A stretch of DNA of 64,000 nucleotides from Ostreococcus lucimarinus (Eukaryota). The stretch's first letter is position 1. Each line of letters opens with the position of its first letter. This document shows, in pieces, positions 1,350 to 55,961 of this stretch. Below the pieces are notes generated by a model that searched no databases, was not told the DNA's origin, and was given only the letters and a program-made list of their open reading frames with translations. The translations under genes were made by a program, and so were the position numbers. The stretch lies in assembly GCA_000092065.1 (NCBI GenBank), contig CP000596.1, one strand, 5' to 3'.

Positions 1350-1931
1350 ATGTCCGCCGCGCCGCGTCGCGCCCCCGATCCTCCCGCGCTTCGCGCGCGC
1401 GCGCGCTCGACGCGACACCGCGACGCTCGATGCCGCGCCGCCGTCGTCCGTCGCACGGGCGAGGACGAACCGACGCAAACGCCCGGCGTCGTCCGTCGCG
1501 CCTTCGCCGTCGACCTCGGCGGTCCGACCCCCGCCGCCGTCGCGCTCGCGTTCCCGGACGCCACCGACGCGGTGTGCTTCGAACTCACGCGCCCGCTCGG
1601 CGTCGTCTTCGAGCAGCGGCTCAGCGGCGCGACGACGGAGATTTTCGTGGACGAGGTCGTGGAGAACGGCGCGGCGGCGAAAGCCGGCGTCGAGCGGGGC
1701 GACGTCTTGCGCCTGTGCACCGCGGTGTTCGAAGTCAGCGCGCCCGTGGACGTCACGACGTGGTTGAATCCACCGGCGAAGCGCAAGGTGAAGGCGTACT
1801 ACGAGTGCGACGCGAAACCGTTCGATTCAGTGATGGACGCGCTGGCGTCGCACGGCGTCCAAATCGACACGCCGAACGGAAAGGAGGACGTCAAATTCGT
1901 GGGGTTGGTGCTTCAACGCGCGCGCGCGTAG
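1350..1931 (+). CDS. Small PDZ-domain-like protein with an Arg/Ala/Ser-rich N-terminal (probable organellar targeting) peptide
   Basis: ATG at 1350 lies in the frame of ORF 1116..1931. The C-terminal half (GVVFEQR...IFVDEVVENGAAAKAGVERGDVLRL) resembles a PDZ fold. Assignment is weak. Confidence 0.4.
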   Translation: MSAAPRRAPDPPALRARARSTRHRDARCRAAVVRRTGEDEPTQTPGVVRRAFAVDLGGPTPAAVALAFPDATDAVCFELTRPLGVVFEQRLSGATTEIFVDEVVENGAAAKAGVERGDVLRLCTAVFEVSAPVDVTTWLNPPAKRKVKAYYECDAKPFDSVMDALASHGVQIDTPNGKEDVKFVGLVLQRARA

Positions 1932-2101
1932 CGTCGCCGTGGATTTATTGAGAGTGTGGATGCGTGGACGCGCGAACGTGTGGATCGGATGCGCGCGCGC
2001 GCGAAATTAGAGCGCGATTGTAAACGACGAGCGTCGAACATCGAGGCGAGGCGCCGCGAGCGTCACACGCCGACGCATCCCACGTCCCCTCGAGCGCGCG
2101 C

Positions 2102-4700
2102 ATGCCTCGCGTCATCGAACTCGACGACGATGAAATAATAGATCGTCAATCGAGCGCGGTTTCGGCGTCCACGACGGCGTCCACGCGTCGCGAGACGGTC
2201 GTTTTCGATGAAGATTTCGACGATGAGAGTGACGCCGAACGACCGAACCTTTACGCGATTCTCGGCGTCGACAGCGCGGCGACGACGTCAGAGATCACGC
2301 GCGCGTACAGGTCTATCGCCATTAAACACCATCCCGATCGCCGACGGGGACGAGCGAACCCGACGGGGCAGGATGACGGGGATGAAAAGTTTGTGGAGGC
2401 GCAGGCGGCTTACGAGATTTTAAAAGACGACGCGAAGCGAGAATTTTACGACGCCGGGGGATCGATGGCGGAGATGGTGCGTCGCGCGACGTGATTGTGA
2501 TCATTTTGAGTGACTGACTGATGCGTTTCGGTGCACGTAGGACGTGGACGTGGAGGAGTACGTGGACGCGTTTAGAGCGTTGTTTGAGGAAAGATTCGGC
2601 GGCGAGGACGTCGCGGCGCTGACGAGAGGGATGTCCACGGAGGAGCTCGAGGCGATGCCCCCGTTTCCGTTTCCAAAGTTTTTGTTTCCGAAAGGAACGT
2701 TTCCAGACGGTTTGAGGTTCGACGAGTCGTCGTTCACGGCGCCGCCGAAGGTCAAGGCGTTCGTCGACGAACACGGAGAGGACGCGTTAGCCGCGCTCGC
2801 GAGCGAGTTAGCGGCGAAGGCTGCGAAGAACCGCGGCGCGGGGGGCGAAACACTGACCAGGGGAGGATTGAGCGAGGAAGAAGAGTTGCGCGCGTTCATC
2901 ATGGACGCCATGAAGGATGAGCTTGACGGCTTGCAGTTTCCCGAAGGTGAAGACATGGACGAAGCCATGGCGCGCTTGATGGAGTCGATGCAAGATTTCG
3001 CGGGTGGCATCAATGGTTTAGGACGCGATTACGGCGACATTTCAGACGACGAGGATGGGGAATTCGGCTACGGCTCACCGAGCTACGGCTCGCCGAGCTA
3101 TGGTTCCCCGCGTTTTGGAGGACGGCGTTCGAGTGGCGTCGCGAGCGACGATTCCGAGCGTTCGTACACGCACACGTCTGCATTGGAGGTGCGACGTTGG
3201 TTGGACGCAGCCAAGGCGGGAGATTTGATCACCATGCAAATACTTCATAAAGAACAGCCTTCGTTGGTGCACGAGCGCTCGAGCGGTGTCGGACACACCG
3301 CCGCGCACTGGGCGGCGGCGAAGGGACACGTCGGCGCGTTGACGTGGTTGCTCGACGCGTGCTCGTTTGATCCCAATTTTTCCAACGCATGCGGTGCCAC
3401 GGCGTTACACTCGGCGGCGGCGAATGGTCAGGAAACGTGCGCAGCCCTACTCGTCGCGCGCGGCGCGCGAACAGATAAGGTGGATGAAATTGGCGAGTCG
3501 CCGTGTGATGTCGCCATACGAATGCAGCGAAGCGGCAAACTCATCGACATACTCGGCGGAGACACCGCGAGAACTGGCGTGTTTTGTGGCGTATGCGAAG
3601 AACTGCCGGTCGTACAAGAAGAAGATGAAATCCCAGCCATCGAGCTCGACAAGGATGCACAACGACGTTGGCTCGGCGCAGCCAAGGCGGGAGATTTGGG
3701 TGTCATGCGCACGATTCTCGATGCAGACGAGAACTTACTATACGCGAACGGTGATGGCACAAACTATGGTTTTTCTGGGAACACCGCCATGCACTGGGCT
3801 GCTTCGAAGAACCACGTCGAATGCATTCGTTGGTTGTACGCTCGCGGTATGGATCCGAACGTCATAAACAAGGGCGACAGCACGCCGGCGCACTCAGCGG
3901 CTGGTTCTGGTGCGCTTGAGGCGCTTCGCACTCTTGTGCACGAGTGTGGTGCCGATGTCGATCGCGCAAACGACGTGGACGAGCGACCGATTGATATTGC
4001 GACGCATCGAGGGTACCATGACGTCGTCACTTTGCTGAAAACTGGTGCCGCGCTCGAAACGTTGCGTGAAGAATTTCTTCGCCAAGGTTCGTACACGATC
4101 AAACGCGCCAAAGGTGTCCTGGACTCGTTCGCCGCAAACGATGCCTCGTGTCGTGGACTGGGCGAAAAGTCGGAAATTGTCGCCAAGATTCAGTCGTACG
4201 TGGACGCACTTCCCGTGAGAATTGAACGCAAGTGCGTCGCGCCGAAACCGCAGTTGCGTGGCGCCGTCACCGCGCCCGAACCTGTGGACGAAATCGTCAC
4301 CCGGAAAGCGAGAGATCGCGCGAACGAGCTGCTCGCTGCGCAAGATTTCACGGCCGCCATCGCATCGTACTCTATGGCCATACGACTTGATCGCGCAAAC
4401 GCCGCGCTGTTTTGCGAACGAAGCGCCGCCAACCTCGGCGCGGGCAAGATTGAAGACGCCCTCGCGGATGCCAAAACCGCGGTCAAGCTCGATGCGCGCC
4501 TAGGAATCGCGTACGCAGCACAAGCGGCTGCGCTCAGCGCCGCGAGTCTCCACGCCGAGGCCGTAAAGGTGTGTCGCGCCGGGTTACTTGAAGACGCCGA
4601 GTGCGACGCCTTGCGAACGCAAATCGTCGCGAGCGAGCGCGCCATCGCGGATGATCGCGCGAGGTACGAAAAAATGTGGGGCGACGAAAGAAAGGTTTAG
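2102..4700 (+). CDS. J-domain (DnaJ) - ankyrin-repeat - TPR protein; proposed structure join(2102..2476,2541..4700)
   Basis: Exon 1 has a J-domain with the HPD motif (LYAILGV...YRSIAIKHHPDR...EILKDDAKREFYD). A 64-nt intron GTGCGT...CACGTAG (2477..2540) would put ORF 2544..4700 in frame; the ORF track 'starts' that ORF at GTG, which fits an internal exon. Exon 2 has at least two ankyrin repeats (TAAHWAAAKGHVGALTWLL; GNTAMHWAASKNHVECIRWLYARG) and C-terminal TPR-like helices. Confidence 0.55.
2477..2540 (+). other. Predicted spliceosomal intron (64 nt, GTGCGT...TAG) in the J-domain gene
   Basis: The donor GTGCGT follows a complete Met codon. The acceptor ...CACGTAG restores the frame of the downstream ORF. 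Confidence 0.5.
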
Positions 4701-53411: not shown

Positions 53412-53880
53412 ATGGACTCTCCCGCGCGCGCGAACGCGTACGGGAACACCGGGATGGAGACCGAAGTGAGACAGTTAAAGGTACGGCGCGAACGCGACGC
53501 GACGCGACGCGACGCGACGCGACACGACGACGACGATCGCGACGAAGACGTCGAAATCAAAATCGAAATCAAATCGCGCACTGACGCCGAAACATCGCCG
53601 ACTCGCGTCCGCGCAGGATCATCAACAAACGCGCGAAGAGTTGCTCAATCGCGTGCACGCGCTGAAGACAGAACTTCAGGATTGGCGGTATAAGATGGAT
53701 AATCAGGTGAAGAATTACAAGGGCGAGTTGGCGAGTCTCAAGGAGACGTTGTCGAGCGAAGTGCAAGCGCTGAGGAAAGAATTAGAAGAGACGAGCGATC
53801 GGTTGAAGCGGTCGATCGTGAGCACAAGTAGCGTGAGTACCGGACATTCACCGGGATTGCATCGATTACCGCCGCCGTGA
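53412..53880 (+). CDS. Small coiled-coil protein (~110 aa), two exons join(53412..53480,53617..53880); function unknown
   Basis: Exon 1 MDSPARANAYGNTGMETEVRQLK ends at donor GTACGG. The 136-nt intron contains (GACGC)5. The acceptor CCGCGCAG is followed by DHQQTREELLNRVHALKTELQDWRYKMDNQVKNYKGELASLK.... Confidence 0.45.
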
Positions 53881-54006
53881 GCGCGCGGCGCCGGCGGAGC
53901 GCAAGTCGCGCGTTTGTATTATCATCGACAGATGTGTTAGTTTTCGGAGAGTTGAAGTTTTTTTTGGCCGAGTCAACGCGAGGATGGAACGGCAGAGGGC
54001 GACGCG

Positions 54007-54321
54007 ATGGCGGTGGCGCAACGAGTGTCGGTGGACGAAGCGCTGAAACGCGTCGTGTCGCACGCAGATGTGGTCGGCGCGGGTATCATGACGTCGCGCG
54101 GCGCGCTCGTCGAGCGGCGCGGCGCCTTCTCCGACGCGGACGCGCGCACGAGTTGCCGCCTAGTCGCAGTCGCGTCGCACGCGATCATCTCAGGAAGCGG
54201 TGGCGGTATCGATGATAATGACGATGGGATCGAGATGGTTCGCGCGCGGCGAGGCGCGTGCGAGCTCGTCGTCGCGAGGTGCGGCGGCGTCGTCATCGCC
54301 GCGCGAGCGGCGTCCACGTGA
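54007..54321 (+). CDS. Roadblock/LC7/MglB-fold small protein (dynein light chain roadblock-type or LAMTOR-like)
   Basis: The 104-aa ORF MAVAQRVSVDEALKRVVSHADVVGAGIMTSRGALVERRGAF... fits the roadblock α-β-α pattern. Assignment is by pattern only. Confidence 0.4.
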   Translation: MAVAQRVSVDEALKRVVSHADVVGAGIMTSRGALVERRGAFSDADARTSCRLVAVASHAIISGSGGGIDDNDDGIEMVRARRGACELVVARCGGVVIAARAAST

Positions 54322-54344
54322 CATCACAACGCGACTCGCTCCAC

Positions 54345-54920
54345 ATGATATCACTCACGTGCAAGCATCACAAACCGCACTCGCAACAATCGCAACGCCA
54401 CCGACGCTCGAAAAGCCATCGATCGCGCACTTCGCGGGCGTCGTCGTCCACCCCTGGACCGACGCCCCACAGCGACGCAACGTCTTCCGGCGAGCACTTC
54501 GGCGCGTTGAGTCACGACGAACGCGTCAGCATCTTGGGCGAAGCCATCATCGATTCTGGCGCGCTCGTGTTCACGAAGAGTCACAGTGGAAGGTACACGT
54601 GCGTTGACAATGCGTTTCTCAAAGCGTTTGGGTTCGAAAAGTCCGAAGATGTCGTCGGACTCACCGACGACGAGGTGATCGAGAAGATTCTTGCGAGCGG
54701 GAAAACATTTCACCACTCGTACCGAGGCGAGTCGGTGACCGATCTTCCGCGAATTTGGAAAGAGAACGACGATCTCGTGCAGCACAACAACCGAACGATG
54801 TGGTTCAAGGAGCGCGCGTTGTTGAGCGGTGGCGAAGACACCAAGCTTCACGAATTTGTCGTGATGAAATCGCCCTTCGCGGGTGGAGTCCTCGGCGTCG
54901 CGGTGCCCGCTGGAATTTGA
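54345..54920 (+). CDS. Small PAS-domain-like protein with a His/Ser/Arg-rich N-terminal linker
   Basis: ...ERVSILGEAIIDSGALVFTKSHSGRYTCVDNAFLKAFGFEKSEDVVGLTDDEVI... resembles a PAS fold. It starts 24 bp after the roadblock ORF stop, in a different frame. Confidence 0.4.
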   Translation: MISLTCKHHKPHSQQSQRHRRSKSHRSRTSRASSSTPGPTPHSDATSSGEHFGALSHDERVSILGEAIIDSGALVFTKSHSGRYTCVDNAFLKAFGFEKSEDVVGLTDDEVIEKILASGKTFHHSYRGESVTDLPRIWKENDDLVQHNNRTMWFKERALLSGGEDTKLHEFVVMKSPFAGGVLGVAVPAGI

Positions 54921-54942: not shown

Positions 54943-55026
54943 GATCAAGACCACAATGACTTAGACCAAGACCACGATGATTTAGACCAAGACCACAATG
55001 ACTTAGACCAAGACCACGATGATTTA
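54943..55026. repeat. Tandem 21-bp repeat ×4 (two alternating variants GA[T/C]CAAGACCAC[A/G]ATGA[C/T]TTA) just downstream of the PAS ORF
   Basis: Read directly from the sequence. If translated it would encode DLDQDH(N/D)D repeats. Confidence 0.8.
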
Positions 55027-55219
55027 GCGTTCTTCGATGCGCGCGCGCTCTTGTTAGAATTACTTTCTTTACCTAATCTATTGTTTCATCACGCGCTTCT
55101 TCCCGTCCCGCGTTTCGACTAACGCGAAATGGGAAATAACCAAAGTTTTATCGCTCGCATAAGGATCGACGGGTCTTCCCTGTGTCTCCACCGCTGTCCT
55201 GGCGACTGTCGCCAACAAT

Positions 55220-55801
55220 CTAGTCCCCGCGAATCGCGCGCACGCTCGCCTCAAGCGCGTACAACTCTTCGTCTTCGATACCTAACCCCCGCAAAGCCTC
55301 GCACAGGTTGTATAAATATTCGGAATTTTCTCCAGACGGACCGCGCGCTGCAGCGATTTGCTCGGCTACATCGCTCGCGTCTCCGAGCCAGTTCAAGTTA
55401 GTCGTCGCCGGCGTCGCGATATACGTTACCGCGTTTCTTATCACCGGCACCGCGTTCGCGTCATCGACGTCGTATAAATCCATCTCAATCCTCTCGTCGT
55501 ACTGTTTTTCTCGTATTTCCAGGTTCTCCAGCACCGCCTCTCGGTCCTCTGCGCGAACTTCGTACGCGACGCCCCAGCACGCGACGTCCTCCGAGCAACG
55601 CTCTAACGTCGCCGTGCGCCCGGGCGCCGCGGGCGTTCCTCGATGGTCGGTGCTTCCTTGATAAAACCGTCGCCGAAACCCTCGCGCGCACACGGGCGCG
55701 ATCGAGCGCGCGTACTCGAAGCCCGTGCGCCACACTATCGAACCGTATCCGAAGACCCATAACGATTCGTTCGCGCGCGTCGACAGCGGCGCGCGAGGCA
55801 T
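55220..55801 (-). CDS. CHAC: ChaC-type glutathione-specific γ-glutamylcyclotransferase
   Basis: MPRAPLSTRANESLWVFGYGSIVWRTGFEY...FYQGSTDHRGTPAAPGRTATL...WGVAYEV matches ChaC/GGCT. This is the C-terminal 193 codons of ORF 55220..56905. The upstream part of that ORF is antisense to RpiA. Confidence 0.75.
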   Translation of the reverse strand: MPRAPLSTRANESLWVFGYGSIVWRTGFEYARSIAPVCARGFRRRFYQGSTDHRGTPAAPGRTATLERCSEDVACWGVAYEVRAEDREAVLENLEIREKQYDERIEMDLYDVDDANAVPVIRNAVTYIATPATTNLNWLGDASDVAEQIAAARGPSGENSEYLYNLCEALRGLGIEDEELYALEASVRAIRGD

Positions 55802-55961
55802 GATGCCCACGTCGTGGTCTCGCGGCACGCGTTTCGCGCTCGAGCTCGCGCTGGCGACAGATCGGGCGCGATGCGCGTTCGACGCGCGCATCGCGAGCGA
55901 AGAAGCGAGGCGAACACTGGCGCGGCAGACGACGACGCGTCGACGCTCGGCCACGCTCGCG

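Follow-up and report, generated by a model that had tools for sequence, protein, structure and literature searches.

A Roadblock/LC7-fold gene and a PAS-fold gene separated by 23 nucleotides in the compact genome of Ostreococcus lucimarinus

How two reading frames that lie almost back to back on one strand of a eukaryotic genome are to be read, as one gene or as two, is the question raised by a locus of the green picoalga Ostreococcus lucimarinus. We analyzed a stretch of 64,000 nucleotides from this organism (assembly GCA_000092065.1, contig CP000596.1), which is called the window here. On its plus strand an open reading frame (ORF) for a protein of the Roadblock/LC7 type (ORF1, 54007-54321) is followed by an ORF for a PAS-fold protein (ORF2, 54345-54920). 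A first-pass annotation of the same DNA had placed both frames, the ORF1 stop at 54319-54321 and the ORF2 start at 54345 in the +2 frame, and the window sequence bears this out; the separation, given there as 24 bp, has to be corrected to a spacer of 23 nt (54322-54344). As explanations it had offered one gene with an unrecognized intron or a frameshift, a dicistronic transcript, or one spurious ORF. The option that was missed, and that is the usual situation in genomes of such compactness, is a pair of genes whose transcription units overlap. We show here that ORF1 and ORF2 are two conserved cistrons, that the pair is unspliced in complementary DNA (cDNA) and that its adjacency is conserved. 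It is very probable that the two ORFs are separate cistrons and that there is no Roadblock-PAS fusion; the way in which ORF2 is expressed is far less certain and is weighed below.

Two conserved cistrons

ORF1 extends from the ATG at 54007 to a TGA at 54319-54321 and comprises 104 codons. ORF2 extends from the ATG at 54345 to a TGA at 54918-54920 and comprises 191 codons, for a basic N-terminal extension and one PAS-fold domain. The spacer between them, CATCACAACGCGACTCGCTCCAC, contains neither an ATG nor an AT-rich stretch. In a crude gene map of the window it is the smallest same-strand gap, all others measuring at least 130 nt. The frame of ORF2, offset by +2 against that of ORF1, has no stop codon back to 54258 and reaches into the tail of ORF1, so that both frames are open together over 64 nt (54258-54321); the sole usable ATG of the ORF2 frame is the one at 54345.

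The region is overlapped by numerous spurious ORFs of 100-170 codons on both strands, and a chance reading frame in GC-rich DNA might thus have explained one of the two ORFs. This reading, which had been among those offered earlier, is ruled out by the conservation of ORF1 and ORF2 under purifying selection, and we give it practically no weight. For ORF1, 9 homologues are found in a single-sequence search and 31 with the family profile, the complete ones mostly 99-145 amino acids (aa) long. ORF2 has 16 homologues (E 3e-122 to 2e-40) of 119-224 aa, each of which is called as a stand-alone protein. In comparisons with five other lineages, synonymous sites are almost saturated with differences (pS 0.57-0.72) and the nonsynonymous proportion pN lies well below, at 0.30-0.42 for ORF1 residues 1-90 and 0.24-0.33 for ORF2 residues 44-191. 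Both products have recognizable folds, and both ORFs show a coding signature in their GC content by codon position (0.73/0.56/0.80 in ORF1, 0.57/0.46/0.70 in ORF2).

The comparison covers 15 related genomic loci, each containing both genes (L001-L009 and L011-L016), from five lineages beyond that of the window, six in all. The lineages were defined by sequence only; apparently they are Mamiellales picoalgae. Across the five further lineages, identity to the window is 38-54% for ORF1 and 49-71% for ORF2. In every spanning locus the PAS ORF directly follows the Roadblock ORF on the same strand. The Roadblock ORF is in turn always directly preceded by a small coiled-coil gene, at a distance of 101-155 nt, and the conserved order of the block is hence coiled-coil, Roadblock, PAS. 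A look at the architecture of orthologues, as the first-pass annotation had advised, finds the pair as separate adjacent ORFs in all six lineages. The spacer, taken to reach from the stop of ORF1 to the first ATG in the ORF2 frame, measures 1, 8, 23, 64, 77, 78, 108 or 113 nt, the frame offset between the ORFs is 0, 1 or 2, and no shared sequence was found among the homologous spacers. Spacers of 1-113 nt combined with a varying relative frame speak for two cistrons. The stop codon of ORF1 is TGA in 11/11 compared loci, extended to TGAC in 8 of these 11, and is followed by spacers that are otherwise unrelated.

The transcripts present the same picture. The spliced 110-aa product of the upstream coiled-coil gene is found exactly on 8 Logan contigs from 8 sequencing runs. 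These contigs are 99.6-100% identical to the window, and the 136-nt intron of the coiled-coil gene (53481-53616), which serves as an internal splicing control, is precisely removed from them. From 53615 onward they are ungapped, and the six of them that reach across the pair carry both ORFs and the 23-nt spacer without loss. Three contigs (L019-L021) exit the genome sequence at 55918 and continue with non-templated C residues and the reverse complement of the SMART IIA oligo, which identifies the contigs as cDNA and position 55918 as the 5' end of the mRNA of ChaC, the next gene downstream, on the minus strand. Both complete ORFs are also borne by a single transcript of the MMETSP collection (Transcript_772), where they received separate TransDecoder calls (g.3245 and g.3240). 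A G/T difference at position 54310, which changes Ala101 of ORF1 to Ser, separates the window from 6/6 cDNA contigs and indicates that the RNA comes from a very close, non-identical strain. The Ser101 variant is the form found on 609 contigs, with sources that include MMETSP and Tara.

Predicted fusion genes at the locus

In RefSeq the locus is annotated as one gene. The 90%-identity cluster of ORF1 includes XP_001421930.1 (ABP00224.1, UniProt A4S9G5), a 239-aa "PAS domain-containing protein" in which ORF1 residues 1-90 are joined to ORF2 residues 43-191. Excising a predicted intron of 194 nt from the plus strand of the window (54279-54472; donor GAG/GTGCGG, acceptor CCCCACAG/C) yields this protein exactly. 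The unrecognized intron that the first-pass annotation had listed among its alternatives is in fact the current RefSeq model, which the cDNA contigs and the comparison of loci contradict. That the locus is a single gene from which this intron is spliced to give a Roadblock-PAS fusion, possibly as a minor isoform, appears to us improbable. The model has canonical GT-AG sites (GAG/GTGCGG and CACAG/C) and keeps the frame, an identical pair of sites is present in five loci including the window, and gene fusions have been reported as a feature of Ostreococcus genomes (PMC2850359). However, the segment is retained in 6/6 spanning cDNA contigs from which the intron of the neighboring gene has been removed, and the RefSeq exon-exon junction is absent from 8/8 contigs. 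Where the earlier annotation had looked to transcripts for a decision, the contiguous cDNA contigs do carry both ORFs, but no splice junction is seen near 54318-54366. The segment is likewise unspliced in the MMETSP transcript, since that transcript codes for both complete ORFs. A scan of JGI metagenome contigs gave 0 matches to the RefSeq junction and is uninformative, as the junction of the neighboring gene, used as a positive control, also gave 0; this collection evidently does not contain the cDNA in question. So far, the fused 239-aa protein has been recorded only from the RefSeq genome.

The comparison between lineages argues in the same direction. Donor or acceptor is lacking in 6/11 loci (the donor in L001, L008, L003 and L005, the acceptor in L001, L008, L014 and L007), and where the sites exist they are accounted for by codons, CGG/AGG-TGC (Arg-Cys) at the donor and CAC-AGC (His-Ser) at the acceptor. 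In addition, 81 frame-preserving GT/GC-AG combinations occur by chance in this stretch, so that the existence of a frame-preserving intron is no evidence for one. With 54279-54472 removed, ORF1 would lose residues 91-104, which form the end of strand 4 and the whole of strand 5, the last strand of the Roadblock fold, and ORF2 would lose residues 1-42. The deleted part codes for the invariant R91 and the nearly invariant V95 of ORF1 and for the conserved PGPTPH of ORF2.

Automatic annotation has stumbled at this locus more than once. In an O. tauri-like genome, the model P0253 (UniParc UPI00085FAD31; 251 aa, L004 1-400) joins the same Roadblock ORF to its other neighbor, the coiled-coil gene, by means of a mini-intron, about 50 nt long, whose removal takes out the end of the coiled-coil reading frame with the conserved C-terminus LHRLP(S/P)P and the stop codon. 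That the Roadblock ORF is fused upstream in one genome and downstream in another indicates that model builders struggle here and points to P0253 as a second, different fusion artefact. The fusion in XP_001421930.1 is very likely an annotation artefact as well.

A single Roadblock-PAS polypeptide could also arise without an intron, through a sequencing frameshift or through programmed -1/+2 ribosomal frameshifting within 54258-54321, where the frame of ORF2 is already open and overlaps the end of ORF1. We regard this as highly improbable. Apart from the substitution at 54310, the sequence recurs unchanged in independent contigs from cDNA and metagenomes, and no slippery heptamer was seen on reading the overlap. 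The C-terminus of ORF1 and the N-terminus of ORF2 are conserved each in its own frame. Programmed frameshifting and, likewise, read-through of the ORF1 stop codon were rejected on the grounds that the frame offset is 0, 1 or 2 depending on the lineage, with stops in between.

Expression of the downstream cistron

If ORF1 and ORF2 are two cistrons, the question becomes how the second one is reached. The gap leaves no room for a conventional promoter, as the first-pass annotation had already remarked. Because 23 nt cannot accommodate both a terminator and a promoter, the two transcription units have to overlap, and because there is no room for 3'-end formation either, the Roadblock mRNA must extend into ORF2 and, most simply, through it. 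We propose that genome compaction eliminated the intergenic region between the two ORFs and that the Roadblock mRNA most probably continues across ORF2 and ends in the AT-rich region after 54920, at a 3' end that both mRNAs would share. The ORF2 protein would be made from a shorter mRNA with a start site within the 3' part of the Roadblock coding sequence and would be translated from its own AUG at 54345. Such an overlap of transcription units would account for the pair staying head-to-tail across related picoalgae. For this statement in full, two separate genes including an internal start site for ORF2, we see about an even chance of being right; we nevertheless favor an internal start site over true bicistronic translation.

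Several features of the genome are part of this picture. Other intergenic regions have AT-rich troughs with a GC content of 0.35-0.47, and the spacer region dips only to about 0.5. A short distance downstream, the transcription start of ChaC at 55918 is located 44 nt from the ATG (55962) of the divergent gene for ribose-5-phosphate isomerase, which indicates that regulatory regions are shared in this genome. Overlapping transcription units have been documented in O. lucimarinus with expressed sequence tags (ESTs): 8.9% of the clusters were examined as possible opposite-strand mergers, and 26 overlapping pairs were confirmed (PMC2367439). Overlapping transcription in compacted genomes is also described for microsporidia and nucleomorphs (Williams et al., 2005, as cited in PMC2367439). 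The locus described here resembles these cases in that its intergenic region is too short for a separate terminator and promoter, and in that cDNA assemblies cross neighboring genes, including convergent ones. It differs from the documented Ostreococcus overlaps, which are mostly 3'-3' overlaps of opposite strands, while ORF1 and ORF2 are on the same strand with a stop-to-start gap of 23 nt.

Some observations weigh against an internal start site. The promoter of ORF2 is deduced rather than read from an observed ORF2 transcription start site. An embedded promoter might be expected to slow synonymous change in the 3' part of ORF1, yet synonymous sites there are no more conserved than elsewhere, in a comparison of only about 13 sites. 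The short-read cDNA assemblies that carry the pair also merge the convergent ChaC transcript, and since the same contigs merge convergent genes, their contiguity is silent on which molecules exist. Lastly, the spacers of 1, 8 and 23 nt in three lineages and the small size of ORF1 fit the upstream cistron of a bicistron.

The last point leads to the strongest rival, a true bicistronic mRNA, that is one capped transcript from which ORF2 is translated after termination and reinitiation or by unusually extensive leaky scanning, with co-expression of both proteins at a fixed ratio. The dicistronic transcript named in the first-pass annotation thus stays open as a serious alternative, to which we give a somewhat lower probability than to the internal start site. 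Nuclear polycistronic mRNAs are established in chlorophytes, with inter-ORF distances down to 14 nt and even overlapping stop and start codons (PMC7896298, PMC11291117). The pair shares with the green-algal bicistrons (Gallaher et al., 2021, PMC7896298; Duenas et al., 2024, PMC11291117) the chlorophyte host, two collinear, conserved ORFs on the same strand, a small first ORF, a very short inter-ORF distance and one assembled transcript that holds both. The two ORFs occur together on an MMETSP transcript as well as on unbroken cDNA contigs, and ORF1 is small like the upstream cistrons of green-algal polycistrons. Collinearity is kept in six lineages, the three shortest spacers would be too short for any promoter, and the TGA stop of ORF1 is common to all 11 compared loci. 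As far as described in these studies, O. lucimarinus was screened only for orthologues of the Chlamydomonas loci (PMC7896298, PMC11291117).

What separates the pair from these bicistrons is the number of ATGs ahead of the second cistron. Chlorophyte bicistrons use leaky scanning, with a weak context of the ORF1 start and a depletion of ATGs before ORF2 (PMC7896298, PMC11291117), and authentic ones have an observed/expected ratio of ATGs of 0.43-0.49 (PMC11291117). Between the two starts in the window, however, there are 6 ATGs where 3.1 are expected (observed/expected 1.9), and over 11 loci there are 57 where 44.5 are expected (1.28). The depletion upstream of ORF2 that is the hallmark of leaky scanning, at a ratio of about 0.45, was thus found neither in the window nor in the 11 loci. 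The start of ORF1 has purines at -3 and +4 (GCGATGG, G at both positions), while that of ORF2 has a C at -3 (CACATGA); the context of the ORF1 start is not obviously weak. Reinitiation after an ORF of 104 codons is generally inefficient. It would also not tolerate spacers of 1-113 nt without conserved elements, and none is visible. Finally, the pair is known here from short-read assemblies, and contigs that also join convergent genes are no proof of a single molecule. A further ATG lies out of frame 23 nt ahead of the ORF1 start. The short ORF that it begins (53984-54046, about 20 codons) extends over the start of ORF1, which is relevant only if this ATG is part of the 5' untranslated region (UTR).

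A more specific version of the bicistron, which we consider unlikely but worth stating, is a conserved picoalgal bicistron in which ORF2 follows an ATG-rich upstream ORF of 104 codons at a distance of 1-113 nt. Ribosomes would reach ORF2 by termination-reinitiation or in some other way than leaky scanning. The co-expression would then reflect a real partnership between an LC7 adaptor and a PAS sensor, the adaptor perhaps being that of an orphan inner-arm-type dynein.

The two proteins and their neighborhood

The product of ORF1 (54007-54321) is a divergent protein of the Roadblock/LC7 family (dynein light chain type) with 104 aa and without an N-terminal extension; according to the structure model it adopts a Roadblock/LC7 fold of about 100 residues. 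This is the fold of the small, dimeric adaptors among the dynein light chains, and the ORF1 product is probably of the cytosolic kind. The Pfam family PF03259 aligns to it over profile positions 2-86 of 91 with 19.9 bits (E 6e-4), which is below the gathering cutoff of 23 bits and weighs against the assignment. However, all 13 aligned members of the ORF1 family match PF03259 (best E 8.4e-8), and the family profile matches LC7a of Chlamydomonas (4.8e-7), Robl of Drosophila (6.3e-7) and further dynein roadblock chains. No bacterial Roadblock protein was found among the matches of this profile at E<=1. An AlphaFold2 model built with 13 sequences (pLDDT 82, pTM 0.71) has the topology a-b-b-a-b-b-b, with helices at residues 2-17 and 43-63 and strands at 22-29, 34-39, 76-82, 85-92 and 95-102. 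Foldseek returns 77 matches in the Protein Data Bank (PDB) at E<=1e-3 for this model, and every one of the 50 listed is a Roadblock, LC7 or LAMTOR protein. The Roadblock call of the first-pass annotation is hence upheld by the family profile and the structure comparison. The best structural match is HBXIP (TM 0.70-0.79), but the Pfam model for the Ragulator subunit LAMTOR5/HBXIP (PF16672) does not match ORF1 (E 0.1, 13.2 bits against a cutoff of 27), and the sequence profile favors dynein LC7 over LAMTOR5/HBXIP. ORF1 resembles the dynein light chains (DYNLRB) as a single domain of about 100 aa with the same order of elements. It differs from them in its strong divergence, with about 20% identity to solved LC7 chains, and in an acidic insert that separates helix 2 from strand 3 and varies in length.

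A possible role for such a protein is suggested by the dynein complement of this alga. O. lucimarinus is aflagellate, yet it is reported to retain IC138 and the two heavy chains of I1, a two-headed inner-arm dynein (Wickstead and Gull, PMC2239267), and the same study counts Roadblock/LC7 among the I1 light chains. It is plausible that the ORF1 product would serve as a light chain of this orphan inner-arm-type dynein. A second, more canonical LC7 may exist elsewhere in the genome.

ORF2 is composed of an N-terminal extension (54345-54476, residues 1-44) and a PAS-fold core (54507-54908, residues about 55-188). The extension is rich in Arg, Ser and His and ends with the conserved motif PGPTPHSD (54453-54476, residues 37-44); apart from this motif it is poorly conserved (pN 0.30-0.56). 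In the first-pass annotation it was taken for a linker. With no Asp or Glu among residues 1-43, it is better described as the N-terminal extension of a separate protein and, judged by composition only, plausibly as a targeting presequence for an organelle. Distant members of the family have Ser/Thr-rich or hydrophobic N-termini in place of the Arg/Ser-rich one.

The core is predicted to form a single PAS-fold domain for the binding of a ligand or signal. No Pfam PAS model matches the ORF2 protein of the window at E<=10. The orthologue P0090, however, passes PAS_4 (23.9 bits against a cutoff of 23.1), and the relatives P0093 and P0095 match PAS_4, PAS_8 and PAS_9. A profile of 16 members finds 147 matches at E<=1e-3 among 1.84 billion representatives, mostly long multi-stretch proteins, and Pfam scans of three of the long matches showed PAS repeats in each of them; one is a histidine kinase, one combines GAF, Cache and PAS domains, and one has PAS repeats only. 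At E<=1e-10 there are only 12 matches in the representative library; those inspected are short (about 200 aa), stand-alone and metagenomic. Single-sequence and profile searches of PDB sequences returned only noise (nitrite reductase, E 0.4), so that the PAS homology is shown via the large-library profile search and the fold comparison. The AlphaFold2 model of ORF2 is poor, and its low confidence (pLDDT 52) weighs against the fold assignment; the order of its elements, b-b-a-a-a-b-b-b, fits a PAS domain. A five-stranded antiparallel sheet with flanking helices, as is characteristic of the PAS fold, is found in ORF2, and the matches in the fold comparison support it. Taken with the PAS_4 match of the orthologue, these results sustain the PAS call made in the first-pass annotation.

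The alignment of the ORF2 family has 47 invariant columns, and its invariant motif FHHSYRGE-x3-DLP, which is part of the core, is a candidate site for a ligand or partner. With this motif of its own, the family differs from stand-alone PAS domains and from PAS sensor modules of the PAS_4/PAS_9 kind (DvhD 9rc0, RpfR, photoactive yellow protein), and it also differs from these in having no effector domain. The family is found in other arrangements as well. The most divergent lineage (L014/L015) has a second PAS-family gene on the opposite strand (1864-2490, minus strand), 2.5 kb upstream, which encodes a protein of 209 aa with a signal-peptide-like N-terminus (P0097). The metagenomic member P0093 (361 aa) consists of two tandem copies of the domain. 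In a genome with 39% GC, a distant member of the family stands alone behind an intergenic region of 314 nt with no Roadblock gene nearby, which speaks for a gene of its own.

Bacterial genes for Roadblock/MglB-like proteins adjoin sensor kinases and small GTPases, as in the actinobacterial 'conservon' cvnA-D and in MglA/MglB. These systems are similar to the locus described here in that a Roadblock-fold gene lies beside a gene with a sensory, often PAS, domain. The locus differs in that it has neither a kinase nor a GTPase, in that ORF1 is closest to eukaryotic dynein LC7, and in that both products are probably in different compartments. The last point is suggested by the N-termini, where the Roadblock protein lacks an extension and the PAS protein has a presequence-like one. 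Nothing that we found indicates a functional link between the two proteins. Conserved adjacency is to be expected in any case if the transcription units overlap, because any break would disable one gene.

Of the surrounding genes, the small coiled-coil gene upstream (53412-53880, plus strand) has two exons (53412-53480 and 53617-53880), and its RefSeq model XP_001421929.1 has the same 136-nt intron as the cDNA; this intron contains a (CGCGA)n run. The protein yields weak coiled-coil Pfam matches only. Downstream, the convergent ChaC gene (55220-55918, minus strand) has a coding sequence at 55220-55801 and, with its ATG at 55801 and its cDNA-mapped start at 55918, a 5' UTR of about 117 nt; its 193-aa product is identical to XP_001422061.1 (O. 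lucimarinus CCE9901). A perfect tandem repeat lies between the PAS stop and the ChaC stop (54946-55027), with two copies of a 42-nt unit or, equivalently, 3.9 copies of a 21-nt unit, CAAGACCACAATGACTTAGAC. The first-pass annotation had also pointed to a nearby gene for a DENN-domain protein and had allowed that its proximity might be coincidental. The gene belongs to the same syntenic block in Ostreococcus-like loci and is absent from the equivalent place in L014/L015. A functional link between the DENN gene and the pair was rejected, given that the neighborhood downstream of the pair differs in L014/L015.

Overall, the locus is a case of ordinary genome compaction and annotation error, with a modest lead toward a bicistron. 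The model A4S9G5/XP_001421930.1, and any "Roadblock-PAS" architecture that domain databases may have taken from it, is very probably an artefact, and two different fusion artefacts at one locus suggest that reported Ostreococcus "gene fusions" should be re-checked against RNA data. Two uncharacterized lineage-restricted proteins are flagged, a divergent LC7 in an alga with an orphan dynein and a small PAS family with the FHHSYRGE-DLP motif. At this locus two eukaryotic genes adjoin with practically no intergenic DNA between them, and the arrangement is conserved. It offers a test case for how downstream genes are expressed in the most compact genomes of free-living eukaryotes, by a nested promoter or by a bicistron that does not use leaky scanning, and the latter, if true, would give the nuclear polycistrons of green algae a second mechanism.

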